Positions 3,760 through 53,820 of a stretch of 64,000 nt of DNA are shown piece after piece; the stretch's first letter is position 1, and each line of letters starts with the position of its first letter. The position numbers were made by a program, and so were the translations under genes. This DNA comes from a virus. The notes beneath the pieces are model-generated. The model made no database searches, had not been told where the DNA came from, and was given only the letters and a program-made list of their open reading frames with translations. The stretch is from IMG/VR virus record IMGVR_UViG_3300047462_000185, positions 1-64,000 of that record. One strand, written 5' to 3'.

Positions 3760-3926
3760 GGAAGAGCTTTTCCGAGGGCGCGATGCATGCCCTCGGGAAC
3801 GCGATCGGCATCATCGAGCGCCAGGCCGCGCGGCGCGCGAAGCCGAAATCTTCCCGGCACCACCTGATTGCCGGCTATCGCGTCGGGCGCGGCCTGCCCG
3901 CGAAGAAAGGGTTCACCGCGCCATGA
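3756..3926 (+). CDS. Short basic ORF, either independent (ATG 3783) or a -1 frameshift extension of the upstream gene
   Basis: Fills the gap exactly; its TGA overlaps the protease ATG (ATGA 3923-3926). Confidence 0.45.
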   Translation: MRKSFSEGAMHALGNAIGIIERQAARRAKPKSSRHHLIAGYRVGRGLPAKKGFTAP

Positions 3927-8900: not shown

Positions 8901-10746
8901 GCCGCGCGGCCTGAAGGTCGAGGCGAGTAACCCAGATCCGTTCAACAAGGACAAAGGCCTGGTCGGCGTCACCTATCGAGCGCGCGACGGCAAGCGCCGG
9001 TTCCTGGTCGGCGCCTATGACGACGGACAGCAGGTCGGTGAAGGCAAGCCACGCCCGCGCCGCGACATCGCGTTCAACGCCGAACTAGAGCAGGTCCGCG
9101 AGCGTGTCCGCCAAGGCGGTCAGGGCGGCGGGGCGCAGGGCCAGGGTGGGGGCGCCCGCGCTGAGCCGGTCCTGCCGGACGACAAGCGCCAGGAGGCTAT
9201 CACCGCAGTGGCCACGCTCAAGGCCCACGGCAAGATCAGAGACGGCGGTTCGGGCGACTGGACCTATCAGCACAAGGAGGGTGCCGATTACGGCCGGCTC
9301 CAGAACGAGGTGCGCACCGCGTTCATTGCCAAGCACAACCAGCGCTGGAATTTCGCGAAGGACAAGCGTCCATACAACCCGGTCGCCTATTTCAGCGCGC
9401 TCCACGATCTCTTCGAGGCGCCCGAAACCGCGCTACTTTCGACCCAGAACAGGGCCGACATCCTGACCGGCAAGGGCATCAACCACGGCATCATGGCGTG
9501 GAACCCGGCCTATGACGGGCAGAACAAGGGGCAGGTCAAACAGGCGCTCCTTCAGGAATTCGCTGGTCAAAGTAACGATGTGCATGTCATCCGTGGCGAG
9601 TCCGACAAGAAGCAGGTGTTCCGCGCGATCGACGTGCTTGGCAAGCATTACGGCCTCGACGGCAGCGATGTGGGCCAGATCCAGGCCGCGGTCGAACAGA
9701 AGATGTCTGGCCACCCGGTCCGCGAAGGCCGTCCACAAGGACAGAGCAACCAGCCGCGTCAGGAGCAGCCACGCGCGCAGAATCGCATCGATCCCAAGAA
9801 CCTGGCCGATGAGCTTTGGCGCGACGGCCATCGCGGCAATCACACGGACCAGGAAAGTTTCCGAAGCATCGTGGCGAAGGCCTACGAGATTAAGCTCGGG
9901 GAACTGAAGCGTGCCGGCAAGGAAGGCCGTGCCGCCGAGATCGAGGCGCTGAACAGCACTGAGCTGAAGTTCAAGGGCTACCAGAAGTCCGACTATGCCG
10001 TCGATCTCCGCAAGGCCGATCTGTGGAGCGCCGAGGAGGGCGACGGCATCAAGCGCGCCGTCGGCATGGGCGCCGGCGATCTCGCTGAGGCCGGGGGCCG
10101 CAAGCTTGGTTCGGGCGCGGGTGGTGGTCCAGATGTTGGGTCAAAGCAGGACAAGCGCTCGTTCTTCGAGCCGGTCCGACTTGGTGGCTCGGTGGGCAGC
10201 TTCGCCGGCGGCGCGGCTGGCTGGACCGGTGCCGAGCGTGCCCTGGCGAGTCGTGCCGCCGGGCGAGCCGCACGTGCGACAGCGGCCGGCGTCATCTCGG
10301 TGCCGCGCCGCGCCAGCGCCGGCATCGCCGGCCGGCTCACCGGCGCGGGCCTCAAGTCTCTCGCGCGAGACGGCGCTGAACACGTGGTCGGGTTCGGCCT
10401 GAAGACGGCCGGCTCGATCCTGGGCGGCGCGGTCGGGCAGATCGGCCTCGAAGCCGCGGCGCGCGGCGCCTACGCATTGGCCGGCAAGAAGGCGCCGGGC
10501 AGCTACGCGCCCAAGATGTCGGGTGGCGAGCAGGTGGCGCGCACCGTCGGCTCAGTGTTGGGACAGGGCGCGGCTGTAGCGCTGGCCCCCGAAACGTTCG
10601 GCGCATCCCTGGCAGCTGGCACAGCCGGCGGTATGGCGGGTGATGCGGTCGGCGGTTGGCTCTACCACCATTTCGCGTCGAACTACGGCAAAGCCACGGC
10701 CAAACACATGGGCCGCTACTTCGCGCCCCCGGCGAAGAGCGCATGA
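5965..10746 (+). CDS. 1593-aa hypothetical head-module protein, putative internal virion/ejection polyprotein
   Basis: GAGGAG RBS; lies between protease and scaffold; Gly-zipper blocks, coiled-coil centre, HPR..G[KR]F motifs. Confidence 0.75.
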   Translation: MALPNPHFDASVIGALRQRLVAHNQALAKRDDRLTLGKMKGLYRRFYHGSDDPHVAALIRIDSHLAKLRKAEFDADDHPRGAGGKFRSKGGARAGAFYPATRDQHEALKDENYGYRQNQTAIIPETRYETLGPPAATAIGVGAGAIQGALFSTPKGDAVDRVVGRFGRGLGWLAGDIAGRATIGAPVVLSAKAARLGIGMINRSTGSRFPRPKPDAGKKYLAAGAKIGRRAGQQVGGLAGKATGQLASIPAWATRRAIAGMIPGRRGKLIAALAGGSVGGVFPGYYAYGHYLNAGVSSIAPFIDAMFPRHVEKAFGADIAALLTDSEVLAKRDAVLGLAGGNDVLEKALGAEIVRRAVRLIGTKARGVVTSNATQVPRKFRMSAAGRAAVTASGGAVGSIAGAAGGAAVGAGRAIWSEFNEKHPRDERGRFAHANSGRAIAHAAVVGAAVGSGIGLLGGRYAARRFETRLARNALETHFSAENVQRMHSDLAAKVKERVADRFLDGMHDPDKMHAEALAAAARNKTEKSEAAEFGRAASHLARHRPSLPETIPVAPGADMHGTVRASLARAARVRFDATIGRAATSPISWITHQLDEGFDTEFRKGMSALGEKMPMFANAKGAKANLINNVDPEQLSPEARKLWDGLVARRTKTLDEVKETLHRRTGDMQGAQKTQRELQRKVDALAAKRQHVEYRGAELIDDDEADPAELRAFLKSEFGIESKVSKRLAPEAQLKALKTELHSAITQFDASAKTEIEDMTRDLEDAREQVNHLSSDIHGDLRPAEREAIRNPFATGKKSPFFEPVPTREELELMRQVAIRRDPTVRAFDTVTEQRIRDAGKRLGSILATQKKALERRGRAGLTDAGAHWMRRATPILAQHLDDAMADLHALRETMVGNREPKGFLHWVLFDRDMKTAGAWMKAQAKKAHDFGEKIGGAAWNNKAKIVGALGVAEAIGGVSYDDKTGTKVTLNPLKWSLPRGLKVEASNPDPFNKDKGLVGVTYRARDGKRRFLVGAYDDGQQVGEGKPRPRRDIAFNAELEQVRERVRQGGQGGGAQGQGGGARAEPVLPDDKRQEAITAVATLKAHGKIRDGGSGDWTYQHKEGADYGRLQNEVRTAFIAKHNQRWNFAKDKRPYNPVAYFSALHDLFEAPETALLSTQNRADILTGKGINHGIMAWNPAYDGQNKGQVKQALLQEFAGQSNDVHVIRGESDKKQVFRAIDVLGKHYGLDGSDVGQIQAAVEQKMSGHPVREGRPQGQSNQPRQEQPRAQNRIDPKNLADELWRDGHRGNHTDQESFRSIVAKAYEIKLGELKRAGKEGRAAEIEALNSTELKFKGYQKSDYAVDLRKADLWSAEEGDGIKRAVGMGAGDLAEAGGRKLGSGAGGGPDVGSKQDKRSFFEPVRLGGSVGSFAGGAAGWTGAERALASRAAGRAARATAAGVISVPRRASAGIAGRLTGAGLKSLARDGAEHVVGFGLKTAGSILGGAVGQIGLEAAARGAYALAGKKAPGSYAPKMSGGEQVARTVGSVLGQGAAVALAPETFGASLAAGTAGGMAGDAVGGWLYHHFASNYGKATAKHMGRYFAPPAKSA

Positions 10747-12296
10747 GCGACTCGGCCGGCACCGGCGGTCCCGGTTTCACGCAAAGCCCAGCAGCCTTCT
10801 CCGGCCTGACCAACACAGATCTGCGGCCCCGTCCCCGCAAAAAGCGTCCCGTGCCTTTGCTCAACACAAGCTTTGTGACCCGGCGCGGCCGGAACAGCAG
10901 GAGTCCTCACATGCGTAAAATCTTCGCCGACAAGCTTGCGCTGCTGAAGACCAGCATCGCCGAGATCAGCAACGCCGCGCCCGAAACACGCGACGCGCTG
11001 CTGGCCAAGTCCTTCAGCGAGTTCGAGGCCGACATCGGCGCGACACTCGATGAAGTCGCGCCCGAGCCGGAGCCGTTGGCCAAAGGGCTGAACCTGATCA
11101 GCAGCCTCGCCACGCTGCTCACCCAGGTCGAGACCACGGTGAAGTGCATCTGCGAGGGCAAGGCCTATCGCTACAGCGACGCCGATGAGGAATGCCCCGA
11201 GCATATCCAACTGGGCCTCCATCACTTCCTCGCGGTCGGCGAGATGGTGCTGCGCGAAATGGTCAACGACCATGTCGAGATGCCGGAAGACGAGATGGAC
11301 GCCGAGAAGGCGGACCGGGCCGGCCAGCTGTTCAAGATCGACAGCGCCGGCACTGTTCTGTTGATCAAGAGCGCACTGCCGGAGAATCTGGTCGGCTTCG
11401 CGCAGGACCCTGCCCTGCTGGCGATCGACCGCATCGAGCTGGGCCGCGACCTCGTCGCGATGGGTGGCGACGTGCTGGTCGCGCTGGACCAGCAGGGCGT
11501 GCTGCCCGACGAGTTGCGCAAGGCCATCCCGCCCGAGATGGGGTCGGACGATGACGCCGGCGACGAGATGGATGGCGACGAGTCGGCCGATGCCGGCGAT
11601 GAGGGTATGGATGACGGCTCTGGCGATGATGGGTCTGGCGATGACGGCGGCGATGGCACCGATCAGATGGACCCGCTCGAGGTCATCGTGCGCCTCGCGT
11701 CCGCCATCATGGTGGTGGGCGGCTCGCTGATCCAGGCTCAGGGCGGCTCAGCGTCGGAAGATGAAGGCGAGATGGGCGGCGAGACCGATGAGGATGGCAC
11801 GGACGAGGCCGACCAAGAGTCGGAGGATACGGGTGGGCCAGGTCCGGCGATCCATGAAGGCGACGATGACGGAAGCACGCCCGAGGGCGAGTCGGGCCAG
11901 GGCGGCACGGACCACACCGCCGATGCGATGCACCGCAAGAACGCGGCGCACCAGTCCGCGCATGGACCGGCGGGGAGCCGCGCCATGTTCTCGGCCGGCA
12001 AGAAGCGCAACCCCGATCAGGCCGAGAAGGTCGCGCCCGGCGGCGCGCTCACCAAGGCGGTCGAGGCACGCATGGGTAAGCTCGAAGAAACGATGGGTGT
12101 GCTGAGCCAGGGCGTGGCCGCGCTCCTGAACCGTCCCGCCGCCGACGACAAGGGCCATTCCGGCATCAGCGCCGCGATCCCGCGTCAGCAGGATGGTCTC
12201 GGCAAAGCAGCCGGTCCCGACATTGCCGAGTTGGCGAAAACCAATCCGGAAGCCGCCGCCACAGCAATGATCCGCACCATCCTGACCGGCCGCTGA
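10743..12296 (+). CDS. Probable capsid scaffolding protein (alternative start 10911)
   Basis: Very acidic low-complexity centre; directly upstream of MCP; ATGA-coupled start at 10743 and AGGAG-preceded ATG at 10911. Confidence 0.65.
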   Translation: MSDSAGTGGPGFTQSPAAFSGLTNTDLRPRPRKKRPVPLLNTSFVTRRGRNSRSPHMRKIFADKLALLKTSIAEISNAAPETRDALLAKSFSEFEADIGATLDEVAPEPEPLAKGLNLISSLATLLTQVETTVKCICEGKAYRYSDADEECPEHIQLGLHHFLAVGEMVLREMVNDHVEMPEDEMDAEKADRAGQLFKIDSAGTVLLIKSALPENLVGFAQDPALLAIDRIELGRDLVAMGGDVLVALDQQGVLPDELRKAIPPEMGSDDDAGDEMDGDESADAGDEGMDDGSGDDGSGDDGGDGTDQMDPLEVIVRLASAIMVVGGSLIQAQGGSASEDEGEMGGETDEDGTDEADQESEDTGGPGPAIHEGDDDGSTPEGESGQGGTDHTADAMHRKNAAHQSAHGPAGSRAMFSAGKKRNPDQAEKVAPGGALTKAVEARMGKLEETMGVLSQGVAALLNRPAADDKGHSGISAAIPRQQDGLGKAAGPDIAELAKTNPEAAATAMIRTILTGR

Positions 12297-30754: not shown

Positions 30755-33700
30755 ATGCCAGCGATTAGCGATCTTCTCGCTTCCTCGACCACGACCGCAA
30801 CGACGCTCAACAGCGGCGATGGCTTCCTGATCAGCCAGGGCGGCGTTTCGAAGGGCATCACCTGGGCGACCATTCTGTCCGTGCTGGGCAGCAGCATCGC
30901 GGCGGGGATCACGATTCCGTCCGGCACCCTGATGGGACGCTCGAGCGCGGGGACCGGCTCCTATCAGGCGCTGACCCCGAGCTCGAATTTCGTGTTCGGG
31001 TCCGGCACTCTCTCGCTGACCGGCGTCGCCCTGGTGGCGAACGATCTGTCGGAATACAGCGGAACCGCCTCGGCGGCCCGGACCAACCTGGGCCTTGGCA
31101 CCATCTCGACCCAGTCGGCCGGCGCTGTGGCGCTGACCGGCGGCACCGCGACGGGCCTGGCGATCACGGCCGGCTCGATCGACGCCGCGCCGATCGGCGC
31201 AAACACGCCGGCGTCGCTGCGCGGCACATCGCTGGCGCTCACCGGCTCGATCGCCGCATCGACGGTGCTGGTTGGTCCGTCGGGTGCCAGTGGCGCGCCG
31301 ACCTGGCGCATGCTGACCACGGCCGACGTGACGGGCGCCGAGAACACGGCGAACAAGGGCGCGGCGAGTGGCTATGCCGGCCTGGATAGCACCGGAAAGG
31401 TGCCGCTCGGCAGCCTACCGGCCACGGTGTCGGGTGCGCTCCACTATCTCGGCATGTGGAACGCCTCGACCAACTCGCCCACCTTGGCCAGCAACGTCGC
31501 GCCTGCGGGTGACAACGCATCGGCTGGCGGGTTCTACATCGTCGGCACGGCCGGCACGACCCTGATCAACGGCGTGTCGACCTGGGGCGCGGGCGACTGG
31601 ATCGTCTGGACCGGGTCGGCCTGGAACAAGGTCCAGGGCGCGGCCGTGCCGGTCAGCAGTGTGGCCGGGCGGACCGGCGCCGTCACGTTGAGCAACACGG
31701 ACATTACGGGCCTGGGCGCGGCCGCGCTGCTCGGTGTCGGGGCCGGCCTCACCAGTTCGGGCGGCGCCATCGTGGTCAGCTTCGGCACGACCAGCGGCAC
31801 CGTGACGCAGGGCAATGACACGCGCGTCGTCTTCGCGCTCCAGTCGACCAACAATTTGTCCGAGCTGAATGCCACGGCCAGTGCGGCGCGCACCAATCTG
31901 GGCCTCGGCACCATCTCGACCCAATCGGCCGGCGCGGTGGCGCTGACCGGGGGCACGATGAACGGCGTGGTGATCGGCGCCAGCTCGGCCGCCGCGATCA
32001 CCGGCACCACACTGGCCCTGACGGCGTCGGTCTCGGCCTCCTATGTCCATGTCGGTCCGACCGGCTCGGCCGGCGCGCCGACCTGGCGCATGCTCACCAC
32101 GGCCGACGTGACGGGTGCCGAGAACACGGCCAACAAGGGCGCTCCCAGCGGCTATGCGCCGCTCGACAGCACCGGCAAGGTGCCGCTGGCCAATATCCCG
32201 TCCTCCGTGATTGGATCGAGCTACTACCTGGGCGTCTGGAACGCTTCGACCAACACGCCGACCATCACCAGCAGCGCGGCGCCGACCGGCTACGGTGTCG
32301 GCGCCTACTACGTCTGCGACGTGGCAGGAACGACCAGCATCAACGGCATCTCCACCTGGGGCATCGGCGACTGGATCATCTGGTCGGGCACGGTCTGGAA
32401 CAAGATCGATGGCTCGGCCAACCCGGTGACCAGCGTGGCAGGCCGTCAGGGCGCCGTGACGCTGACCTATGCCGATATCTCGGGCCTGGGCGCTGCGGCC
32501 CAGCTCAGCGTTGGCACCGGGCTCCAGAGCGTCAGCGGCTCGCTGGCGATCAACTTCGGCACGACCAGCGGCACCGCGGCGCAAGGCAATGACAGCCGCA
32601 TCACGGGCGCGCTCCAGGCCGCCAATGCGTTGTCCGAGCTGACCGGCGCGGCTTCGATCGCGCGTGGCAACCTGGGCCTTGGCACCATCTCGACCCAGTC
32701 GGCCGGCGCTGTGGCGCTGACCGGGGGCACCGCGGCGGCCCTGGCGATCAGCAGCGGCACGATCAATGGCACGCCGATCGGCGGCGTTACGCCAGCGGCG
32801 GTGAGCGCGACCACCTTGACCGTTACGGGCTCGCTTGCCGCGTCCTACGCGCATATCGCGCCCACCGGATCCTCGGGTGCGCCGACCTGGCGCGCCATCA
32901 CCACGGCTGACATCGCCAACGCCGAGAACACGACGAACAAGGGTGCGGCGGGCGGCTACGCGCCGCTGGACGGCAGCTCGCATGTCCCATTGACCAACCT
33001 GCCCGCCACCGTTTCGGGTGCGCTCCACTACCTCGGCACCTGGAACGCCTCGACCAACTCGCCGACGCTCGCCAGCAACACCGCGCCTGCGGGCGATAAC
33101 GCATCGGCGGGTGGCTTCTACATCGTCAGCACGGCGGGCACGACGCTGATCAACGGCGTGTCGGCATGGGGTGTGGGCGACTGGATCGTCTGGACCGGAT
33201 CGGCCTGGGCCAAGCAGGTCGGCGAAGCCAACCCGGTCGGCAGCGTTGCGGGCCGCACCGGCGCCGTCACGTTGAGCAACACGGACATTACGGGCCTGGG
33301 CGCGGCCGCGCTTCTCGGCGTGGGCACCGGTTTGACCAGTTCGGGCGGCTCCCTGGTGGTCAGCTATGGCACGACGAGTGGCACCGCGGCGCAGGGCAAC
33401 GACAGCCGCATCACGGGCGCGCTCCAGGCCAGCAACGCTCTGTCCGAGTTGAGCGGATCGGTTGCCACGGCGCGCACCAACCTGGGCCTTGGCACCATCT
33501 CGACCCAGTCGGCCGGCGCTGTGGCGCTGACCGGCGGCACGATGAACGGCGTGGTGATTGGCGGCTCGTCGCCCGCCGCGATGACTGGCACCACGCTCGC
33601 CCTGACCGCGTCGCAGACCGCATCCTACGTGCTGGCCGCGCCCACCTCGACCGCTGGCGCACCGACCTGGCGCATGCTCGCCGCGGCCGACATCAGCGGT

Positions 33701-36700
33701 CTTGGCGGGGCGGCCACGCTGAACGTGGGCACGGCGAGCGGCACTGTGGCGGCCGGCAATGACAGCCGCATCACGGGCGCGCTCCAGACCAGCGCCATTC
33801 CGACCGCATCCCTGCTTGGGGGTGCGAGCAACGCGCTGACCAGCATCAGCATCAACGGCACGCTGAGGTTGAGCAGCGGCGTGCTGTCGTTCCTGGCCGC
33901 GCCGACCGAAACCAGCGCGACGCGCTACGAGACGGCTGGCGGCGCGATCATCTACGAGTCGGACACCACCAAATTCGCCTTCTTCGACGGCACGGCATGG
34001 CACTACATGGTTCGCGCCGACGGTGACACGATGACGGGCGCACTTACTGTGACTGGCACCACCTCGCTTGCCACGTTGAGCGCTGCCAGCGGCACGATCA
34101 CCGGAGCTTTCGTGATCGAGGGCGCCGCCACGCTTGCAGCGCTGAGTGCGACGACAGGCTCGTTCAGCAGCACGTTGCACGTAACGGGGGTCGCAACACT
34201 CGCCACAGCGGCTAACATCAACGGTGTTGCATCGGGCTATGCCACGGCCGGCCTTACGGTGGGAACCGACTACGGTGGCACCAACGAAACCGACCTAATG
34301 GTGGGTGCGGCCGGCCTGAACGTTTATTCGATCAGCAGCGGCGGCATTCCTTCTTCGGTGCCACTACTGTCGATGAACAACAAGGGCCAGCTTGTCAGCA
34401 TTGCCGGCGGCCAATCCGGAGTTGCGGGCGAAAACATCGCGACGCTCGATCTGACCGCCGGTCGGGTCAACATGCTGAAGCAAATCAGCACAACACAGAC
34501 CAACTCGCCAACCGTCAACGTGCAACTTAGCAATAGTTGCGCGCTGACATTGAGTGCAGATGGTCTGTATCCCCAAATCGGCGCACTAGACGTCACCGCC
34601 TATGGACTGACAGGCGGTTCCGCTTGTCTCGATGCGCTGATCGCGACGATCAACGTCTATGGCAACAACGCGATTAGCGCCCAGGACGTGGCTGTGCAGG
34701 CCACGGTGAACCAATACGGTCACGACAGCACATGGGGTCTGGACGTATTCACGACGGACTGGTCCGGCGAGCCGCCCCAAGGCTTCGCGCAGGTCGGCGT
34801 CGAGATCGACATGGCGGGCAACGGTGCCGATGCGGCCACGTCGCAGTATGACAGTCTCCACAACTACCGCGCCGCCATAGTCATCTCGCCTGGCACCCAG
34901 GGATGGTCGGCCTGGACCCCCTCCACGGCCTATCATGCGAACGGCACGAATTCGGTTGGTTCCATCATTCAGATGACCAATTCGGCCGGCGTGCTGAGCA
35001 TCTACAAATGCACGACGGGGGGCACCAGTGGCGCCTCAGCGCCCGCTTCTTGGCCCACCTCAGGAACGGTTACGGATAACACAGTCGTCTGGACTTATCA
35101 GCAGGCCGCTGCCTACCAGGTCGGACGTGGCATCTTCCTGAATGGTTATGGCTCGGCCGGTGCGTATTTTGGAACGGGCTTCAGTTCGGATGCGGCCTAT
35201 TCCAATGCCGTCATAGATATCAGCGAAGCGACGCTCAGCACATCGATCAATGCGAATGCGGCTGCAATCAGAATCGCGGCAAACCAAGCTATAGACTTTT
35301 CGGGAAACGGCACATTGGCCGGTCAGAATCTGCATACCCTAAGTTATAGCAGCGTCTATTCTTCGCTTTACTACAACGTCAGTGGTCAGAACCGTTTCCA
35401 GATCAAGGATACGGGTGCGTTGCTTGCGTTCGGAACGTTCAACTGCGCATCGAACTCAACCATTTCATCGTTGCACAGCGTGACCAGCGGTTACCTAGGA
35501 GGTCTGACTGTTGGTGTGAACTACGCCGGAACCGGCGAGACCGACTTCATGGTCGACACGGCTGGCCTTCAGATATACGCGGTGCAGTCGGGTGGCACGC
35601 TCTCTTCGGTGCTGTTCAGCATGGACGGCAGCGGCGACACGGCGATTGCGGGCAGCTTGAGCAGCGGCGGGATCGCCCATCTGGCGACGCTGGCGGGCGG
35701 TATTGGTAGTCTGCATGGCGCAACCACGTTCAGCGCATCTGGCGGTCTCATCGTCGGCTCGGATTATAATGGCAGCGGCGAGCTCGATTTTCTGATCAAC
35801 ACCGGGGGCCTCGGCATCTACGCGGTGCAGTCGGGTGGCACGCTGTCGTCCGTGTTGTTCAACCTCGATGGCAGCGGCAACGCCACGATTGCGGGGAATC
35901 TGACTTGCGGCGGCGAGGCTCACTTCGGAACGTTGTCCGGGGGTTCTGGCAGTCTGCATGGCATGACGACGTTCAGCACCTCGGGTGGTCTGATCGTCGG
36001 TTCGGGCTATAGCGGAGTTGATGGTGAGACTGACTTTCTCGTCAACACGACGGGCCTTTCGATCTATGCGGTGCAGTCGAGTGGCACGCTGTCGTCAGCG
36101 CTTTTTACGATAGATGGAAGCGGCGATGTCGGAATCGCAGGAACTCTGAATGTCACCGGAGCAGCAAGCCTCGCGGCTCTGAGCGCGACGAATGCCACCT
36201 TTACCGGCACGATGTCGGTCTCGGGCAACGTCACGCTGGGGGGCGCCATCCTCGCCCAGGTCTCCGGCTCGACAACGGCGCAGAGCAGCGGCCTGCCGAG
36301 CCTGGACTTCCTCGGCTCGACCATAAATTTCCAGAGGAAGGTCTCGAGCGGCAATCCGACCTACGCCGGGACGCGCGTGTTCCTGGACAACTACAGCTCG
36401 GCCTACACGGTGCAGAGCTGGGGCGGCTACTCCAGCGTCCCCGCCTTCTCGGTCACCGCGACATCCCACCCGGGAGCCAACGGCTCGACGGTCGGCGTCG
36501 CCGCCATCCTCAACAGCAACGGCAGCGCCGGCTACGCCGCGCAGGAGTGCGCGATCACGGCCAACGTCACCAAGACGGGCACGAACGGGACCTGGGCCCT
36601 GGCGACGCAGAGCGTCGACAACACGGGGCTTACTCCGACCGCCTTCTCGCTGTGGGGCGTCGAGATCGACCTTCTCTCTAACGGTCCCGATAGCGCAGCG

Positions 36701-38071
36701 TCGGCCTATACCTACAGTGCGGCCGCTCGTCAGGGCATCCTGATCGCGGCCAAGCCCAACCCGGTCAACACCTACGCCGCCAACACGCCCTTCTCGGTCG
36801 GCCAGCTCATCGCCGAAACTCCGAGCGCCGGCGTCTCGACTGTCTTCATCTGCACGACGGCGGGCACAACGGGATCCACCGCGCCGACCTGGAACGGGAC
36901 CTACGGTGCGACGGTTACGGATGGCACCGTGGTGTGGACCACGGGTGTCGCCTATGCCACGACGATCGGCACCGGCATACAGATCGGGTCGGCCAGCGGG
37001 GCCACGATCAATACCGGCATGTGGTTCAACGGCCAGTTCAACAACGCCTTCCTGGACTTCTCGGGAGCGACGCTGGGTGGTTCGAATAGCGCCGCGATCC
37101 GGCTCGCGTCCGGCATGGTGATCGACTTCACCGGCAACGCGACCTCGGCCGGCCAAAACATCCGGACGCTTGGCTACTCGAATTACGCCTCGGCGCTCCA
37201 ATACGTCATCAGCGGAACGGTTTCCTGGGCAGCGAACAACGCCGGGAATTTCTTTGCGAATGGCCAGACAATCCTGGGTGGCGGCGCGGCCGCCAATCTC
37301 AGCGGTGTCACCACCGGCTTCTCAAATACAGCCCTCACAATTGGCCGCAACTCCTCGACCTATGGCGAGATCGATCTGATCACCGGGTCCGGTGGGATCG
37401 ACTTCATCGCGACGAATGGTTCTGGTGTGATCTCGTCGCCGTATCTGACGGCGTCTCCGACCGGCCTGACCGCCTACGGCAAGCTCTCAGTCAGTGGTAT
37501 CACCAACCTGGGCAACGGCTCTGGTGCCAACATCTACGGCGTGACGACCGGGTTCGGCTACACCGGCATTTCGTTCGGCTACAACGCCGCGGATCTCGGT
37601 GATACGGACATCCTGTTCAACAACGCGGGTCTCTACTTCTACCCGGTGTCGAGCAGCGGGACGATCTCGTCCCCTGCCGCGATCCTGACGGGCGCTGGTG
37701 CCCTGAGGACCTACGGCATCACCAACTTGGGCAACGGCTCGGGTGCCAACATTGGCAGCGTGACGACCGGCTTCTCCAATACCGGCATCACCTTCGCCTA
37801 CAACGCAGGACTGACCGGCGACACGGACGTCCTGTTCAACAACGCGGGTCTCTACTTCTACCCGGTGTCGAGCAGCGGGACGATCTCGAACGCGGCGGCG
37901 ACTCTGACGTCTTCGCTCCTGTCGATCGAGGGCCACCTGAACGCGCCCCTCGCCACCCCGGCCTCGTCCTCGGCCGCCGGCACGGCTGGCACGGTCCAGT
38001 GGGACGCCAACTATGTCTACGTCTGCACCGCGACTAACACCTGGAAACGGGCCGCGCTCAGCACATTCTGA
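30755..38071 (+). CDS. 2438-aa repetitive tail fibre/adhesin
   Basis: ARTNLGLG, SVAGRTGAVTL, GNDSRITGALQ repeats; C-terminal WDANYVYVCTATNTWKRAALSTF. Confidence 0.9.
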   Translation: MPAISDLLASSTTTATTLNSGDGFLISQGGVSKGITWATILSVLGSSIAAGITIPSGTLMGRSSAGTGSYQALTPSSNFVFGSGTLSLTGVALVANDLSEYSGTASAARTNLGLGTISTQSAGAVALTGGTATGLAITAGSIDAAPIGANTPASLRGTSLALTGSIAASTVLVGPSGASGAPTWRMLTTADVTGAENTANKGAASGYAGLDSTGKVPLGSLPATVSGALHYLGMWNASTNSPTLASNVAPAGDNASAGGFYIVGTAGTTLINGVSTWGAGDWIVWTGSAWNKVQGAAVPVSSVAGRTGAVTLSNTDITGLGAAALLGVGAGLTSSGGAIVVSFGTTSGTVTQGNDTRVVFALQSTNNLSELNATASAARTNLGLGTISTQSAGAVALTGGTMNGVVIGASSAAAITGTTLALTASVSASYVHVGPTGSAGAPTWRMLTTADVTGAENTANKGAPSGYAPLDSTGKVPLANIPSSVIGSSYYLGVWNASTNTPTITSSAAPTGYGVGAYYVCDVAGTTSINGISTWGIGDWIIWSGTVWNKIDGSANPVTSVAGRQGAVTLTYADISGLGAAAQLSVGTGLQSVSGSLAINFGTTSGTAAQGNDSRITGALQAANALSELTGAASIARGNLGLGTISTQSAGAVALTGGTAAALAISSGTINGTPIGGVTPAAVSATTLTVTGSLAASYAHIAPTGSSGAPTWRAITTADIANAENTTNKGAAGGYAPLDGSSHVPLTNLPATVSGALHYLGTWNASTNSPTLASNTAPAGDNASAGGFYIVSTAGTTLINGVSAWGVGDWIVWTGSAWAKQVGEANPVGSVAGRTGAVTLSNTDITGLGAAALLGVGTGLTSSGGSLVVSYGTTSGTAAQGNDSRITGALQASNALSELSGSVATARTNLGLGTISTQSAGAVALTGGTMNGVVIGGSSPAAMTGTTLALTASQTASYVLAAPTSTAGAPTWRMLAAADISGLGGAATLNVGTASGTVAAGNDSRITGALQTSAIPTASLLGGASNALTSISINGTLRLSSGVLSFLAAPTETSATRYETAGGAIIYESDTTKFAFFDGTAWHYMVRADGDTMTGALTVTGTTSLATLSAASGTITGAFVIEGAATLAALSATTGSFSSTLHVTGVATLATAANINGVASGYATAGLTVGTDYGGTNETDLMVGAAGLNVYSISSGGIPSSVPLLSMNNKGQLVSIAGGQSGVAGENIATLDLTAGRVNMLKQISTTQTNSPTVNVQLSNSCALTLSADGLYPQIGALDVTAYGLTGGSACLDALIATINVYGNNAISAQDVAVQATVNQYGHDSTWGLDVFTTDWSGEPPQGFAQVGVEIDMAGNGADAATSQYDSLHNYRAAIVISPGTQGWSAWTPSTAYHANGTNSVGSIIQMTNSAGVLSIYKCTTGGTSGASAPASWPTSGTVTDNTVVWTYQQAAAYQVGRGIFLNGYGSAGAYFGTGFSSDAAYSNAVIDISEATLSTSINANAAAIRIAANQAIDFSGNGTLAGQNLHTLSYSSVYSSLYYNVSGQNRFQIKDTGALLAFGTFNCASNSTISSLHSVTSGYLGGLTVGVNYAGTGETDFMVDTAGLQIYAVQSGGTLSSVLFSMDGSGDTAIAGSLSSGGIAHLATLAGGIGSLHGATTFSASGGLIVGSDYNGSGELDFLINTGGLGIYAVQSGGTLSSVLFNLDGSGNATIAGNLTCGGEAHFGTLSGGSGSLHGMTTFSTSGGLIVGSGYSGVDGETDFLVNTTGLSIYAVQSSGTLSSALFTIDGSGDVGIAGTLNVTGAASLAALSATNATFTGTMSVSGNVTLGGAILAQVSGSTTAQSSGLPSLDFLGSTINFQRKVSSGNPTYAGTRVFLDNYSSAYTVQSWGGYSSVPAFSVTATSHPGANGSTVGVAAILNSNGSAGYAAQECAITANVTKTGTNGTWALATQSVDNTGLTPTAFSLWGVEIDLLSNGPDSAASAYTYSAAARQGILIAAKPNPVNTYAANTPFSVGQLIAETPSAGVSTVFICTTAGTTGSTAPTWNGTYGATVTDGTVVWTTGVAYATTIGTGIQIGSASGATINTGMWFNGQFNNAFLDFSGATLGGSNSAAIRLASGMVIDFTGNATSAGQNIRTLGYSNYASALQYVISGTVSWAANNAGNFFANGQTILGGGAAANLSGVTTGFSNTALTIGRNSSTYGEIDLITGSGGIDFIATNGSGVISSPYLTASPTGLTAYGKLSVSGITNLGNGSGANIYGVTTGFGYTGISFGYNAADLGDTDILFNNAGLYFYPVSSSGTISSPAAILTGAGALRTYGITNLGNGSGANIGSVTTGFSNTGITFAYNAGLTGDTDVLFNNAGLYFYPVSSSGTISNAAATLTSSLLSIEGHLNAPLATPASSSAAGTAGTVQWDANYVYVCTATNTWKRAALSTF
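31040..33790 (+). repeat. About 0.8-kb intragenic repeat, three full units plus a partial fourth
   Basis: NLGLGTISTQSAGAVALTGGT recurs near 31085, 31895, 32668 and 33479. Confidence 0.85.
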
Positions 38072-41143: not shown

Positions 41144-41398
41144 CTATGTGCCGACGGCTTCGCCCTCCTTCGGGGGCTCTTCGGGGTTCGGGCGTGGATC
41201 GTGGCACCAGCGCTGTGTGTAATCACAGAAGTGGCATATCCAGCCGTTGACGGTCGGGGCGAGGTATCCATCACCGCGGGCGTGCTTTCCATCGCCTCGC
41301 CTGGGACAGGTGTAGGGATGGTAGCTCCCGTCGGCCTGGTGATCAGCGAGCAACTGGACGACTTCGGGCGCCCAGGGCGCGTCGAGCCGTGCCATCAC
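41144..41398 (-). CDS. Small Zn-ribbon-like protein
   Basis: HPYTC...GWICHFCDYTQ.W. Confidence 0.65.
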   Translation of the reverse strand: MMARLDAPWAPEVVQLLADHQADGSYHPYTCPRRGDGKHARGDGYLAPTVNGWICHFCDYTQRWCHDPRPNPEEPPKEGEAVGT

Positions 41399-41886
41399 AT
41401 CCCGTCCGGGATGGGATAGCCGTTCTGGACCAGGAAGGTGCGCCAGGAGGTCTGGGCAATCACGGTGACGCTGCCGTCGCGGCCGATCTCGCTGATCCTG
41501 CTATGCGGACGGTCCATCGCGAGTAACCGCAGCACGGCTTCGTCGAGGGTGAGCCAAGTGATCTTGGCCGTGAGCTGTTCCAGCGTGATCTTCGGATCCA
41601 GCGTGGTGTAGCCGTCCGGGTATTCGTCACCTTCACGCTCCTCGCCGCACACGAAGGCGTTGCCGCCCAGCGGTTGCTTGTCGTGGCGATCTTCGAGCAC
41701 GAACCAATGCTTGTTGAGCGGCGGCAGCAGGCCATCCTCGTCGACCATGAGAGTGTCGCCGTTGGGCCAGCGGAACGCCGCTTCCATTGAGCTGATCCCG
41801 ACCGCGTGTTTGGCGTCGGGATAGATAGATTCGACCTCGACCTCGGTGATGAGCCGAAGCTCTGAGTCGATTTTGAAGATTTTCAC
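41395..41886 (-). CDS. DUF3846-like hypothetical protein
   Basis: DTLMVDEDGLL...PLGGNAFVCG. Confidence 0.6.
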   Translation of the reverse strand: MKIFKIDSELRLITEVEVESIYPDAKHAVGISSMEAAFRWPNGDTLMVDEDGLLPPLNKHWFVLEDRHDKQPLGGNAFVCGEEREGDEYPDGYTTLDPKITLEQLTAKITWLTLDEAVLRLLAMDRPHSRISEIGRDGSVTVIAQTSWRTFLVQNGYPIPDGM

Positions 41887-41951
41887 GGGTTGCCTTTCTG
41901 CCGGGATGCGCCGGCTGATCGCGCCACGCTATGCGCGGCAAGGCGCCTCCG

Positions 41952-42389
41952 TCAGGAGGCTGTATTCCGTGGGTTGACGAGGAATGGGTATTTGACCTCG
42001 CGGCCGAGCACTTGAGAGGCCCAGGCGAGCGGTTCCTTCCAGTCGCGCTCATCACCATCCGATGTGACTTTGATCGCGTCAGAGCAATGCTCCTTCGCTA
42101 TCGCCAGCACCGCGCAAACAACCGTGTCGTATGGCTTTGACGCCGTCTTGCAGAACGAGAAGCTGTCCGACGGGACACGCTCCAGGATGAAAGTCTCGTG
42201 GCCGTCCGGATCGGGGGTTCCGTTAAACCGGATCACGTAGCTGCCGACGTATGGCGGTTCCGGATCATCTTCCTCGTATGCCAGCTTGCAGGGGGCTGCG
42301 CTAATCAGTTTGAACGCATCGTCAGCGATTTTCTGCCAGCGGTCCGATGGGATGCTCTTGTTCTGACGCCAATAATGGGTGTAACCCAT
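41952..42389 (-). CDS. Conserved hypothetical phage protein
   Basis: MGYTHYW...IRFNG...HETF...FCKTA.KPYD.VV...SDGD..W. Confidence 0.75.
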   Translation of the reverse strand: MGYTHYWRQNKSIPSDRWQKIADDAFKLISAAPCKLAYEEDDPEPPYVGSYVIRFNGTPDPDGHETFILERVPSDSFSFCKTASKPYDTVVCAVLAIAKEHCSDAIKVTSDGDERDWKEPLAWASQVLGREVKYPFLVNPRNTAS

Positions 42390-42462
42390 GTGGTTTCCTT
42401 TCTGCCGGTGAGCGCCGGCTGATCGCCCCGCACCTGGTGCGGGAAGGCCCCGCGCTAGGCGG

Positions 42463-42729: not shown

Positions 42730-42767
42730 TGGGTATCTCCTCGGTCCGGCACTATTGCCGGGGAAGC

Positions 42768-43217
42768 CTATTCTGGCTTTTCGGATGAGCCCTGGACCGG
42801 CGCCGGCGGCGGCTCAGGCCCCGCGCCTTCCTTGTCGTCGGGCGGAGCGGCGGGCGGCTGGTTGATCTTCTGGATCAGGTCATGGGCCAGTTCGGCCGCA
42901 ATCTTGTAGTGCAACTCGCGATCGAGGGCCGGCATGTTGGTGCGCCGCATCGTCTCCTCGATGATCAGGAAAGCGGCAAAAAGCATGTCCTGCATGGGCC
43001 GCTCGTTCAGCAGCGCGACGAGGATATTGTATGTCGCCATCGTGGCGGGAAACCGCATCTGAAGCAGGGCGCGTAGCTGAACGTCGAGGAATTTGGTGCG
43101 CTCGTGCGCCACCACCTCATCGGGCGAAGGGACAATGTTGAACAGCCTCATCGCGTCTTTCTCGTCCATGACTTCCTCGGCCTGGTTGAACAGGTAGGCC
43201 GCGGCGCGGCCTTTCAA
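42768..43217 (-). CDS. Hypothetical protein
   Basis: Coupled to the upstream gene; exact start uncertain. Confidence 0.6.
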   Translation of the reverse strand: MKGRAAAYLFNQAEEVMDEKDAMRLFNIVPSPDEVVAHERTKFLDVQLRALLQMRFPATMATYNILVALLNERPMQDMLFAAFLIIEETMRRTNMPALDRELHYKIAAELAHDLIQKINQPPAAPPDDKEGAGPEPPPAPVQGSSEKPE

Positions 43218-43543: not shown

Positions 43544-43919
43544 TGGGTATCTCCTCAGTCCGGCACTATTGCCGGGGAGCCCGACGGGTGCGCCGTCAGG
43601 GTTTCGTCGCGCGATTTTGCGTCTTCAGTTCGCGGTCAATCTCATGCCGCTCGGTTGTTGTCGTTTCCGATTGGTATAATTCATCCAACAGCCACGCCGT
43701 GGCCCGGCATGACGCCGCGATGCCGTCGCGCTTGCCGCAATAGGACGCAACAACCCGCTGCGCTGCTTCAATCGCTACGACGGCTCGCCGAAGCTTGGTG
43801 AGGTCTTCCATCGTCAGGTTTGTGCCAGATTCTGGCATTGGGTCTAACCTTTTCAACCGACGCACGATTGCGTCGAAACGCATCGAGCCGCAGGGAATGC
43901 CTGCGGCTCGATGTTTCGG

Positions 43920-45378
43920 TCAGATGCTCAGTCGCTTGCAGATCTTGTCGACCTGCCCGCCAACTGTGGCAAGCTTGCTCGCAAGGTCCTCGGTCGAAGC
44001 GTCAACCGCTTCGGCGACGATGTCTTGCAGGCTGGGGGCTGTCTTGGACGGCACCTTGGTCTCCAGCAGGTCGAGATGCTGCTGCATCCCGGCCGCCGCG
44101 TCGGCGATGTCCTGGTCGGTAATGACGAACTGGCCTCCTCCGGCCCGACCGATCGCATAGAGCTTGGCGCGCTCCACGGCTTCACGGATCACGGCAGGAA
44201 TCTGGCCGGCCAAGACGAGGCCCGCGCGCTCCAGGGTGTCGGCCGCATCGAGGCGGGTGCGCCCATACAGGCGCATCAGCTTGCGAGCCGCCGGCGCGTC
44301 CGGGGGCGTCACGTCGATCACCGCATCGAGCCGACCAGGGCGAAGCATCGCCTTGTTGATCTGCTCGACGTGGTTGGTGGTAAGCGCCACCATGATCTCG
44401 GTGTTCTTCGACTGCACGCCATCGATCGTGTTCAGAATGTCGTCGATCTTCACGGTGCGGTCAGCGCCGGACAAGACCCGGTCGATGTCCTCCGCGAAGA
44501 TGACGCAGGGCTGGTAGGCCTTGGCGAAATCCAAAAGCGTTCGCGAGACCCTTGACCCGCTTCAGCAGCAGGAAGGTCCAGCCGTGCTCGACGGCGATCT
44601 TGGCCGTGGCATGGGCGGTCAGCGTCTTGCCCGTGCCGTAGCGGCCCGAGAGCAGCACACCCCGCTTCAGCGGGATCTTCTGCTCGCGGCACGCCGCGGT
44701 GTGCTTGATCGGGGTCCAGAGCGACGTTTCGATCTGCCGCTCCGTCACCTCGCTGAACACCAGCTCGGTCGTGTCGATCTTGGTCGTGTCGAGGAAGTTC
44801 AGTTCGTCATAGTCCAGGTCACCGTCATCATCGGCTGTCATCGCGAAGGCTTTGCCCTTGTAGATGGACTGCTCCGCGATGAACTTCCGGGTCAGATGTG
44901 CCAGTTCCACGATGGTCTTGTGGAACCGGCGCTCCACCTCGCCACCGATCAGGAAATTCAGACCGGTCTTGCTGCGCCAGGTGTCGCAGGCGACATAGCC
45001 GACGATGCCGGGGATCTCGAAGCGACCCCACACCACCGACATACGCTTGCCGTTGGCACCGATGGTGACATCGAGCGTTTGGGGTGGGTTGTGGCCCCAG
45101 AATCCCGGCGTCGGGACGGCTTCCGCCCAGCCGAACATCGTCGCCATCGCACGGTAAAACGCGACGGCGCCGTCGAGATAATGAGCGTTGATCTTCTCAT
45201 TGATCGCGACCTTCTGGGTCTCCTCGCGCAGCTTGCGCTGCAACGTGTCGATCGCGGTGGGCAAGCCCATCTCGGCCGGCTGGGCCGGTAGCGTGATGTG
45301 CTCGCCAAAGTGGCGAACCGGAACGTCGATCCCTTTGAAGGGATCTTCGAGAACGGCTGGGGTAAACGAATCAGGCAT
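43920..45378 (-). pseudogene. AAA+ ATPase split by a single-base frameshift at 44533-44536
   Basis: Walker A GRYGTGKT in one frame; Walker B IFAEDID and second region of homology LTTNH...AMLRPGRLD in the next. Confidence 0.85.
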
Positions 45379-45475
45379 TTGTTTGTCCTGTTGTTGTGTC
45401 GCGGGGAGCAGCGCGACGGGAAAACTCCCAGCGCTCGCCAACCGTCATGGGGAAGGACGGCGAGGCTTCTGCGGC

Positions 45476-46129: not shown

Positions 46130-46334
46130 GGGGTATCTCCTCAGTGCCGCGCAGAATTGCGTGGCGTATGCCTTGGGGCATTTCGCTGAGCGAGACGACG
46201 CGCCGAATGGCGTTGATCCGCTTGCATATATGGTGATTTCCCGTTGCCCAGGCAACATGAAATCACATGGTCATGTGTTTTTCAAGCGGTTTTCACATGG
46301 TCCTGTGCGAATTCGTTCCACGTGGAACACGGCG

Positions 46335-53154: not shown

Positions 53155-53197
53155 CGGACAGGTCTCCTCAGTCCTGGCTCCATTGCCAGGGGACCGC

Positions 53198-53488
53198 CTA
53201 GTCGGCGGCTTCGACGTCCGATGTGATGCGGCGCTCATCCACGGCGAGCGCGATTGCTTCCCACTCCTTGCGGAGCTGGTCGAGCTTTTCGCAGCGCCGA
53301 CGATGCTGGGCCACAGCAACTTGCATCGCGCCGGGATCCTGCACGTAATAGTCGCGGCCGTTCGGATGAACCTCCTGAAGCAATTTCTGAAGCCGATCGA
53401 TTGCGTCGAGCACTTTTATGATTGGCTCGACCAGGCCGTCGCGTGACGTGCCGTTCATGTGCAGGGTGGGGATGGCGAGCTTTGCCAT
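53198..53488 (-). CDS. Hypothetical protein
   Basis: PTLHMNGTSR..L...PNGRDYY.Q; leader-element RBS. Confidence 0.75.
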   Translation of the reverse strand: MAKLAIPTLHMNGTSRDGLVEPIIKVLDAIDRLQKLLQEVHPNGRDYYVQDPGAMQVAVAQHRRRCEKLDQLRKEWEAIALAVDERRITSDVEAAD

Positions 53489-53532
53489 TGCGGGTCTCCT
53501 CAGTCCTGGCCCAATTGCCAGGGGACCGCCGA

Positions 53533-53820
53533 TCAAACGAGATCGGCGGGGTCGACCTTCTGTTTCCAGGGCGCCAGCTGATAGAACAGCGGCTCCAAGC
53601 GTCGCGTTGGCTCGACAAACACGTAGGTCATGTCGAGCTTACGCTTGTCTTCGTCGATCGTGGTGCCCAGGAAATGCACCTTCCAGCGATGCGCCAGATC
53701 CTGGCCCATCGTGCTATAGCCGAACGGGTTGTCTTCGTCGGCCGTCGGTGCGTCCTTGTTGGCGCGAACCCGTTCCAGGGTGGCGCGCAGCTTCTTCGGG
53801 TATTGCTTCTTCTTTGCCAT
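53533..53820 (-). CDS. Hypothetical protein
   Basis: GGAG RBS; clean ORF. Confidence 0.65.
   Translation of the reverse strand: MAKKKQYPKKLRATLERVRANKDAPTADEDNPFGYSTMGQDLAHRWKVHFLGTTIDEDKRKLDMTYVFVEPTRRLEPLFYQLAPWKQKVDPADLV

Follow-up and report, generated by a model that had tools for sequence, protein, structure and literature searches.

A phage genome recovered from moss metagenomes carries, in the gaps between its small genes, a repeated 53-nt RNA element that folds as a three-way junction with hammerhead-like topology and whose closing helix contains the Shine-Dalgarno sequence of the next gene. We hold with moderate confidence that this element is a hammerhead-derived, cis-acting intercistronic module that governs how accessible the ribosome-binding site is, and in which self-cutting is locked, weakened, conditional or absent. 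The number of copies, their positions and the covariation of two of their helices can be read directly from the genome. The coupling of neighboring genes, a pseudoknot within the junction and the loss of catalysis are what we infer from them.

We analyzed a stretch of 64,000 nucleotides (hereafter the window), corresponding to positions 1 to 64,000 of the virus record IMGVR_UViG_3300047462_000185. The whole record spans 106,637 bp with 64% G+C and is estimated to be 93% complete. The phage is uncultured, and its nearest cultured relatives are Brevundimonas phages (46% capsid identity). The genome also encodes 29 tRNA genes and a permuted tmRNA of the two-piece type with the tag ANDNTGMGAVRLAA (L042 9395-13833, genome 93.4-97.8 kb). 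The permuted tmRNA points to an alphaproteobacterial host.

The original prediction had described two 53-nt copies as a duplicated element with an invariant junction, in which hairpin 1 changes in sequence while preserving its pairing and CCU/AGG closes the junction over the Shine-Dalgarno sequence; it had staked the structure on covariation in further homologs. Both copies are indeed present on the minus strand (Table 1), and their 30-nt core pattern is found twice in the window, where 100 shuffles lead one to expect 0.00 matches. The element is however far more than duplicated. Searching the whole record by pattern and with a covariance model derived from the copies returned nine canonical copies (69-87 bits), in addition to one variant copy and one sister copy with a different linker. 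The junction is identical between the two copies of the window but not across the ten canonical and variant copies, where the linker reads GCGAUCA seven times, GCGUCCA twice and GCGUUCA once. The pairing of hairpin 1 is maintained through compensatory changes at five of its seven pairs, and the closure over the Shine-Dalgarno sequence is found as CCUU/AAGG, with an outer pair that alternates between G-C and U-A. The further copies provide the covariation, all of them being paralogs within one genome.

Table 1. Coordinates of the junction elements, their parts and the related families. Positions refer to the window unless the record (genome) or L041 is indicated.
Feature	Position	Strand	Remarks
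Motif copy 1	41944-41892	minus	G-CCUU, 17-nt hairpin, GCGAUCA, GCCGG-6 nt-CCGGC, AGAAAGG
Copy 1 hairpin 0 (CCUCC-UGAC-GGAGG)	41946..41959	minus	
UGA stop of upstream 145-aa gene	41954-41952	minus	inside the loop of copy 1 hairpin 0
Copy 1 closing helix, 5' strand (GCCUU)	41940..41944	minus	anti-Shine-Dalgarno; last U is would-be hammerhead position 17
Copy 1 hairpin 1 (GCCGCGC-AUA-GCGUGGC)	41923..41939	minus	one G-U pair
Copy 1 7-nt linker GCGAUCA	41916..41922	minus	
Copy 1 hairpin 2 (GCCGG-CGCAUC-CCGGC)	41900..41915	minus	stem and loop CGC invariant in 10 of 10 copies
Copy 1 AGAAAGGC	41892..41899	minus	extra A, GAA, closing helix 3' strand = Shine-Dalgarno sequence
Gene 3' of copy 1	41395..41886	minus	163 aa, GTG start at 41886, DUF3846
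Motif copy 2, whole junction	42448-42396	minus	same layout as copy 1
Copy 2 hairpin 0 (CCGC-CUAGC-GCGG)	42450..42462	minus	
Stop of 88-aa gene upstream of copy 2	42465-42463	minus	
Copy 2 G-CCUU	42444-42448	minus	
Copy 2 hairpin 1	42427-42443	minus	
Copy 2 linker GCGAUCA	42420-42426	minus	
Copy 2 hairpin 2	42404-42419	minus	
Copy 2 AGAAAGG	42397-42403	minus	
Gene 3' of copy 2	41952..42389	minus	145 aa, ATG at 42389
Canonical copy cores (genome)	41.9, 42.4, 69.4, 70.05, 70.5, 71.05, 71.25, 71.8, 74.5 kb	minus	
Variant copy (genome)	72,221-72,273	minus	covariance model 38 bits, E=4e-8
Sister copy	genome ~67.8 kb = L041 about 3795-3858	minus	linker CCGAUGA
Second family	42736-42800, 43550-43620, 46136-46200, 53163-53230, 53495-53560	minus	
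Second family, more copies (genome)	68228, 68429, 68683		
Third family, five copies	genome 72.9-75.1 kb (L041 about 8900-11100)	minus	
Predicted cut sites spanned by RNA-library contigs (L041)	6587/6586, 7300/7299, 8271/8270, 10587/10586		8271/8270 in two runs

All 11 elements are intergenic and lie on the minus strand, which is the coding strand. From 5' to 3', the module is composed of the upstream stop, a GC-rich hairpin (hairpin 0), (G/U)CCUU, hairpin 1, the linker GCG-NN-CA, hairpin 2 (GCCGG-CGCNNN-CCGGC), A-GAAAGG(C/A), a spacer of 6-9 nt and the ATG or GTG of the next gene. Hairpin 0 varies in sequence between copies, and in several of them the upstream stop is located inside its loop. 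Hairpin 1 has a stem of 6-7 bp and a loop of 3-6 nt. While these two hairpins change freely and by compensation, around 27 nt are invariant in the ten copies, and the variable positions of the core are confined to linker positions 4-5 and loop-2 positions 4-6. The distance between the upstream stop and CCUU in the nine canonical copies is 8, 41, 7, 4, 7, 5, 11, 15 and 8 nt. The sister copy follows the same layout (CCUU, a hairpin, CCGAUGA, AAGGG-UUCAC-CCCUU, GAAAGG) and lacks the extra A; its AGG is followed by a single base (the A of AGGA) and then by the next in-frame ATG, so that the assignment of the start is uncertain.

The gene that follows copy 2 helps to define the limits of the module. 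All 22 homologs of the 145-aa protein that we inspected start with MGYTHY, and the ATG at 42389 is therefore the true start and the motif a non-coding leader. The protein itself (MGYTHYW at its start) has homologs in highly diverse phages, at over 560 loci with a G+C content between 33% and 69%, in which M1-G2-Y3-T4-H5 and the CKT and YD motifs are invariant. It belongs to no Pfam or PHROG family.

We measured how well the proposed helices are preserved in the alignment of the nine canonical copies. Standard pairs form in 97.4% of the alignment cells, compared to 87% after shuffling (none of 500 shuffles reached the observed value), and pairing drops to 34-44% when the partners are slid out of register. 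The CCUU/AAGG part of the closing helix is invariant and its outer pair is G-C in six and U-A in two of the canonical copies, whereas in the variant copy the whole helix is replaced by GGGAU/AUCCC and the Shine-Dalgarno sequence (AAGGAG) falls immediately beyond the junction. Hairpin 2 never varies in sequence, although stem II of one copy contains an inserted C-G pair. The single G-U pair of the structure is located in hairpin 1 and fits an RNA read from the gene strand, since it would become an A-C mismatch on the other strand. Minimum-free-energy folding recovers the three-way junction in three of seven copies, and lengthens hairpin 2 by one C-G pair across an A-A mismatch.

The conserved core may also adopt a second arrangement. 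The GCG of the linker is complementary to the CGC of loop 2 in all ten copies, and both segments are absent from the sister copy. Together with the pairing of CA-GCCGG and CCGGC-AG across the A-A mismatch, this complementarity defines a candidate H-type pseudoknot, and the variable positions of the core coincide exactly with its two proposed loops. Since both strands of the putative pseudoknot are invariant, covariation is not seen there and the pattern of conservation is what suggests it.

The resemblance to hammerhead ribozymes was the basis of the original prediction, which had read the element as a variant ribozyme or a new motif of translational control. Folds, covariation and descriptor searches agree on the architecture of type III hammerheads (RF00008), a junction of three helices in which stems I and II form hairpins and stem III is left open. 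We used a generic type III descriptor, which requires two hairpins, a 7-nt linker of any sequence, (A)GAA, an A-U pair and a single unpaired base; on both strands of the 106 kb it matches exactly the ten copies and the sister and nothing more, while a loosened version gives 4-12 matches per shuffled genome. Like type III hammerheads, the element has a linker of 7 nt in which G5 and A9 are present and positions 3 and 8 can pair (G-C in the ten copies and the canonical C-G in the sister), GAA before the A15.1-U16.1 pair and an unpaired U or C at the would-be cut (position 17), the last three features being present in all copies. Unlike the hammerhead linker (C3-U4-G5-A6-N7-G8-A9, or CUGANGA), the linker GCG-NN-CA retains only G5 and A9, has the 3-8 pair swapped and C at position 4 in all copies, and does not conserve position 6, which is U instead of A in three of ten otherwise intact copies. 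Other differences are the extra A between stem II and G12 (nine of ten copies), the sequence invariance of stem II and of half of loop 2, and a stem III that doubles as ribosome-binding site. Loop 1 is variable in sequence (3-6 nt) and neither complementary to loop 2 nor covarying with it, although many natural hammerheads likewise have no obvious contact between loops I and II (Perreault et al. 2011, PMC3088659). The original prediction is thus borne out in part: the topology is real and G5, A9, GAA and A15.1-U16.1 are present, but A6 is not kept and no member of the hammerhead clan matches.

The absence of a match was consistent across the Rfam searches, which the original prediction had proposed as a check. 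No hammerhead was returned at the gathering score in the whole window, and none of the clan at E<=10 in searches of 1401, 181 and 106 nt, which listed noise at 9.5-15 bits; the sister copy is likewise without a match to a hammerhead model. The noise matches to snoRNA and miRNA models and to M23 RNA (12.9 bits against a cut-off of 41.2) were dismissed.

The hammerhead core is almost invariant across thousands of natural examples (PMC3088659), and the departures seen here can be compared to the few core variants that have been described. The exchange C3G/G8C is the sole double mutant of the CUGA turn that restores activity, the single mutants of CUGA being low in activity (PMC9901934). U4C is a natural viroid variant that is weak in vitro and, with reduced activity, tolerated in vivo, and other natural core variants include a U3-A8 covariation and the A6C of phage Bcep176 (PMC3088659). 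Each single departure of the motif, with the exception of the inserted A, therefore has a precedent with some activity, but here they occur together, and the precedents for U4C or a change of A6 are clearly reduced in activity. No model match, C4, the inserted A, U6 in three of ten copies and the invariance of stem II and loop CGC, which is not needed for hammerhead catalysis, place the family outside the hammerheads.

Two further hammerhead-like families reside in the same arrays (Table 1). The second family is composed of a hairpin with the upstream stop, (U)CCCC, a covarying hairpin (CCGGC/GCCGG or CUGGC/GCCAG), A-C(U/C)GAGGAGA, 5-6 nt and the ATG. Its CUGAGGA, which is CCGAGGA in one copy, corresponds to the consensus of the hammerhead linker and doubles as Shine-Dalgarno sequence. 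No Rfam hammerhead model matches this family. The third family has type I topology, with C(A/C/U)GACGA, a hairpin, GAA, a second hairpin closed by C-G (15.1-16.1), U and GGGA, and one of its members (L041 9523-9590) returns a weak match to Hammerhead_HH9 (17.4 bits against a cut-off of 52). A6 is invariant in the 13 copies of these two families (eight of the second, five of the third) and variable in the GCG-NN-CA family. This contrast within one genome suggests that the constraint acting on the GCG-NN-CA family is no longer that of a hammerhead active site. Since the topology holds and other hammerhead-like families occur in the same arrays, it is plausible that the family descends from a hammerhead, but it is no longer a standard one.

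The features described above fit a module that acts between two small leftward genes of a polycistronic phage mRNA. Because the Shine-Dalgarno sequence forms the 3' strand of the closing helix, the fold would set the accessibility of the ribosome-binding site of the next gene. As expected of a sequestering leader, the Shine-Dalgarno sequence is paired with an upstream anti-Shine-Dalgarno in a helix under selection. The latter lies 4-15 nt past the upstream stop in eight of the nine canonical copies and 41 nt past it in the remaining one, which in the eight is within reach of a terminating ribosome, taking the general figure for how far a ribosome extends beyond a stop codon. A ribosome terminating on the upstream gene could thus open the closing helix and couple the translation of the two genes. 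The GCG:CGC pseudoknot and a C8-G12 pair across the A-A mismatch would keep the hammerhead-like core from taking a catalytic form, and weak, conditional or no self-cleavage would then be expected. A simple scan of the gene array detected no internal sigma-70-like promoter except at ~68.5 kb, outside the part that bears the copies.

The anatomy of the module agrees with the translational control motif of the original prediction, but the predicted masking is modest. The median unpaired probability of the Shine-Dalgarno sequence is 0.33 for the motif genes (eight of ten scored) and 0.41 for 119 other genes (p=0.06), a predicted accessibility only slightly below that of the other genes. In addition, masking cannot be the whole function of the module because the Shine-Dalgarno sequence of the variant lies outside the junction. 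The sequence invariance of stem II may point to a partner acting in trans.

Coupling through a helix of anti-Shine-Dalgarno and Shine-Dalgarno that is melted by the upstream ribosome is classical in RNA phages and bacterial operons. The module resembles these cases in that its anti-Shine-Dalgarno follows the upstream stop by a few nucleotides and pairs with the downstream Shine-Dalgarno sequence, and differs from them in that its helix, of 4-5 bp, is short, forms the base of a conserved three-way junction and is predicted to mask modestly. It also resembles the SAS and ESAS repeats of Cluster K mycobacteriophages, which are found at 11-19 phage genes and for which a role in translation initiation was proposed (Pope et al. 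2011, PMC3203893). In both cases a conserved asymmetric repeat containing the Shine-Dalgarno sequence directly precedes a subset of gene starts, nearly all copies have one orientation and the upstream stop sometimes falls within the element. The two have no sequence similarity, as SAS is a 13-bp consensus (GGGATAGGAGCCC) to which the motif does not conform, and the three helices of the motif are backed by covariation, while RNA pairing of the ESAS inverted repeats is unsupported according to the authors (PMC3203893). The motif therefore has position and logic in common with SAS, and shape and setting in common with the clustered hammerheads of phages and prophages, which likewise occur in many copies between single small phage genes and on the coding strand.

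A more elaborate possibility, to which we assign a low probability, is that the module is a switchable hammerhead working as a translational relay, with cleavage dependent on translation of the gene before it. While the mRNA is at rest, its core would be locked by the GCG:CGC pseudoknot and C8-G12, and the closing helix would hide the ribosome-binding site. A ribosome finishing 4-15 nt away would melt hairpin 0 and the closing helix, and the core would refold into a G3-C8 hammerhead and cut after CCUU. This would yield a monocistronic mRNA whose Shine-Dalgarno sequence is free and whose 5' end is protected by a hairpin.

RNA-library data for the array come from moss and plant metatranscriptome runs, which contain 20-38% of the words of the 69-75 kb array; in moss DNA runs the share of words is 40-93%. 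Contigs assembled from these RNA libraries run across the predicted cut in five copies, reaching 31 nt or more beyond it in both directions (Table 1). These contigs have a depth of 2-7 and come from a single study in which DNA carry-over is possible, and they argue only weakly against efficient cleavage. Recurrent contig ends at L041 7835 and 7891 (two runs of one study) do not match a predicted cut site. One contig joins the 69.4- and 74.5-kb copies through an identical stretch of 55 nt (L041 5426 to 10537, with 5110 nt skipped), and is either a graph artifact or a recombinant without the array.

The evidence can be read in other ways. The module could be an active variant hammerhead that cuts itself after CCUU (U17) and separates the cistrons, a possibility that we consider doubtful but worth weighing in detail. 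Hairpin 0 would then become the protective 3' end of the upstream product and hairpin 1 a cap-like hairpin at the 5' end of the downstream one, and the Shine-Dalgarno sequence would be freed since a closing helix of 4-5 bp falls apart after the cut. A hairpin directly before the would-be cut, as found in 10 of the 11 copies, is what a processing site needs, and it favors this explanation, as does the variant, which retains the junction even though its Shine-Dalgarno sequence has moved out of it. The topology and the conserved G5, A9, GAA, A15.1-U16.1 and U/C17 are also in its favor, together with the two accompanying families, one with its weak HH9 match, and the precedent of hammerhead clusters beside single phage genes (PMC3088659). 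The core departures cut both ways: positions 3-8 are complementary in every copy, their swap is the double mutant that rescues activity (PMC9901934) and U4C is tolerated by a viroid in vivo (PMC3088659), but three or four departures (C4, inserted A, swapped 3-8, and U6 in three of ten) are combined here, and single CUGA mutants already have low activity (PMC9901934). Moreover, no hammerhead model reaches even ~10 bits, pairing or covariation between loops 1 and 2 is not seen, catalysis does not explain the invariant stem II and loop CGC, and the RNA-library contigs, for what their low depth and possible DNA carry-over allow, bridge the predicted sites.

Alternatively, the invariant hairpin 2 and its flanks could be the operator of a factor that binds RNA in a sequence-specific manner, be it a small RNA or a protein of the phage or its host, and that represses or activates the approximately ten genes as a regulon, similar to phage translational repressors or to Mu Com. 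Invariant nucleotides beside freely compensating hairpins are typical of sequence-specific recognition, and the element overlaps the ribosome-binding site. The array also codes for a 67-aa zinc-ribbon-like protein (CxxC...CxxC), but the neighboring proteins have no match in Pfam or PHROGs and offer no candidate factor, no complementary RNA was found in the genome and the hammerhead-like geometry would be left as a coincidence or a relic; we therefore regard this explanation as unlikely. Least probable of all, in our judgment, is an element that acts at the DNA level or is neutral, such as a promoter, an operator, a site of recombination where cassettes meet or a selfish repeat that has no role as RNA. 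Repeated, oriented elements at gene boundaries in arrays of small accessory genes would fit it, and the contig joining two copies could mean recombination. However, compensatory changes preserve three helices whose pairing is correct only in register, the G-U pair has no equivalent on the opposite strand, and a promoter with its leader would not fit, given that the conserved Shine-Dalgarno sequence is 6-9 nt away from each start. Sigma-70-like hexamers are absent. A sigma-54 promoter was rejected on reading the sequence because the GG-N9-GC spacing is one base short, and an integron attC site was rejected likewise. Helices too short for RNase III and a GGA in only three of nine canonical copies led us to discard sites for RNase III and CsrA.

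The 67-aa protein mentioned above is encoded directly behind one motif copy (genome 70329-70532, minus strand). It matches no family, and its sequence makes it a possible nucleic-acid binder.

We searched for copies of the motif in other genomes. The exact core and looser patterns gave no true match in IMG/VR outside this phage, and the 40 matches to a junction-only pattern were all without the hairpins. JGI metagenomes returned no match, and GTDB genomes three chance matches in which the fold is absent. The motif is upstream of none of the 145-aa homolog loci among the matches listed, which do not include the closest homologs (55-61% identity). On contigs of capsid relatives (41-53% identity) the covariance model detected nothing significant and the generic descriptor background only, while 709 kb of other phage loci contained no motif copy and the AAA ATPase, when used as bait, returned no close relatives. 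With no copy outside this phage, all the evidence reported here comes from paralogs within a single genome.

Since 2011 an explanation has been sought for the clustering of hammerhead ribozymes around single phage genes (PMC3088659). The phage described here is a compact natural experiment, with ten near-identical variant copies, a sister with the canonical 3-8 pair and two further families. A hammerhead-shaped fold fused to the ribosome-binding site of the next gene offers a testable link between ribozyme-like structure and translation control. If the copies cut, the accepted hammerhead core would be widened; if they do not, a ribozyme fold would have been reused as a structural regulator.

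Two other features of the window were observed. The AAA+ ATPase (window 43920-45441, minus strand), whose counterparts in distant phages are FtsH-like, is divided between two overlapping frames, an ORF at 44461-45441 with the Walker A motif and an ORF at 43920-44534 with VIFAEDID. The split may reflect a frameshift, either programmed or due to an assembly error. On the plus strand, an ORF of 2438 aa (window 30755-38071) contains three to four tandem repeats of ~774-810 nt with 61-89% identity, and probably encodes a tail fiber or another repeat-bearing structural protein.
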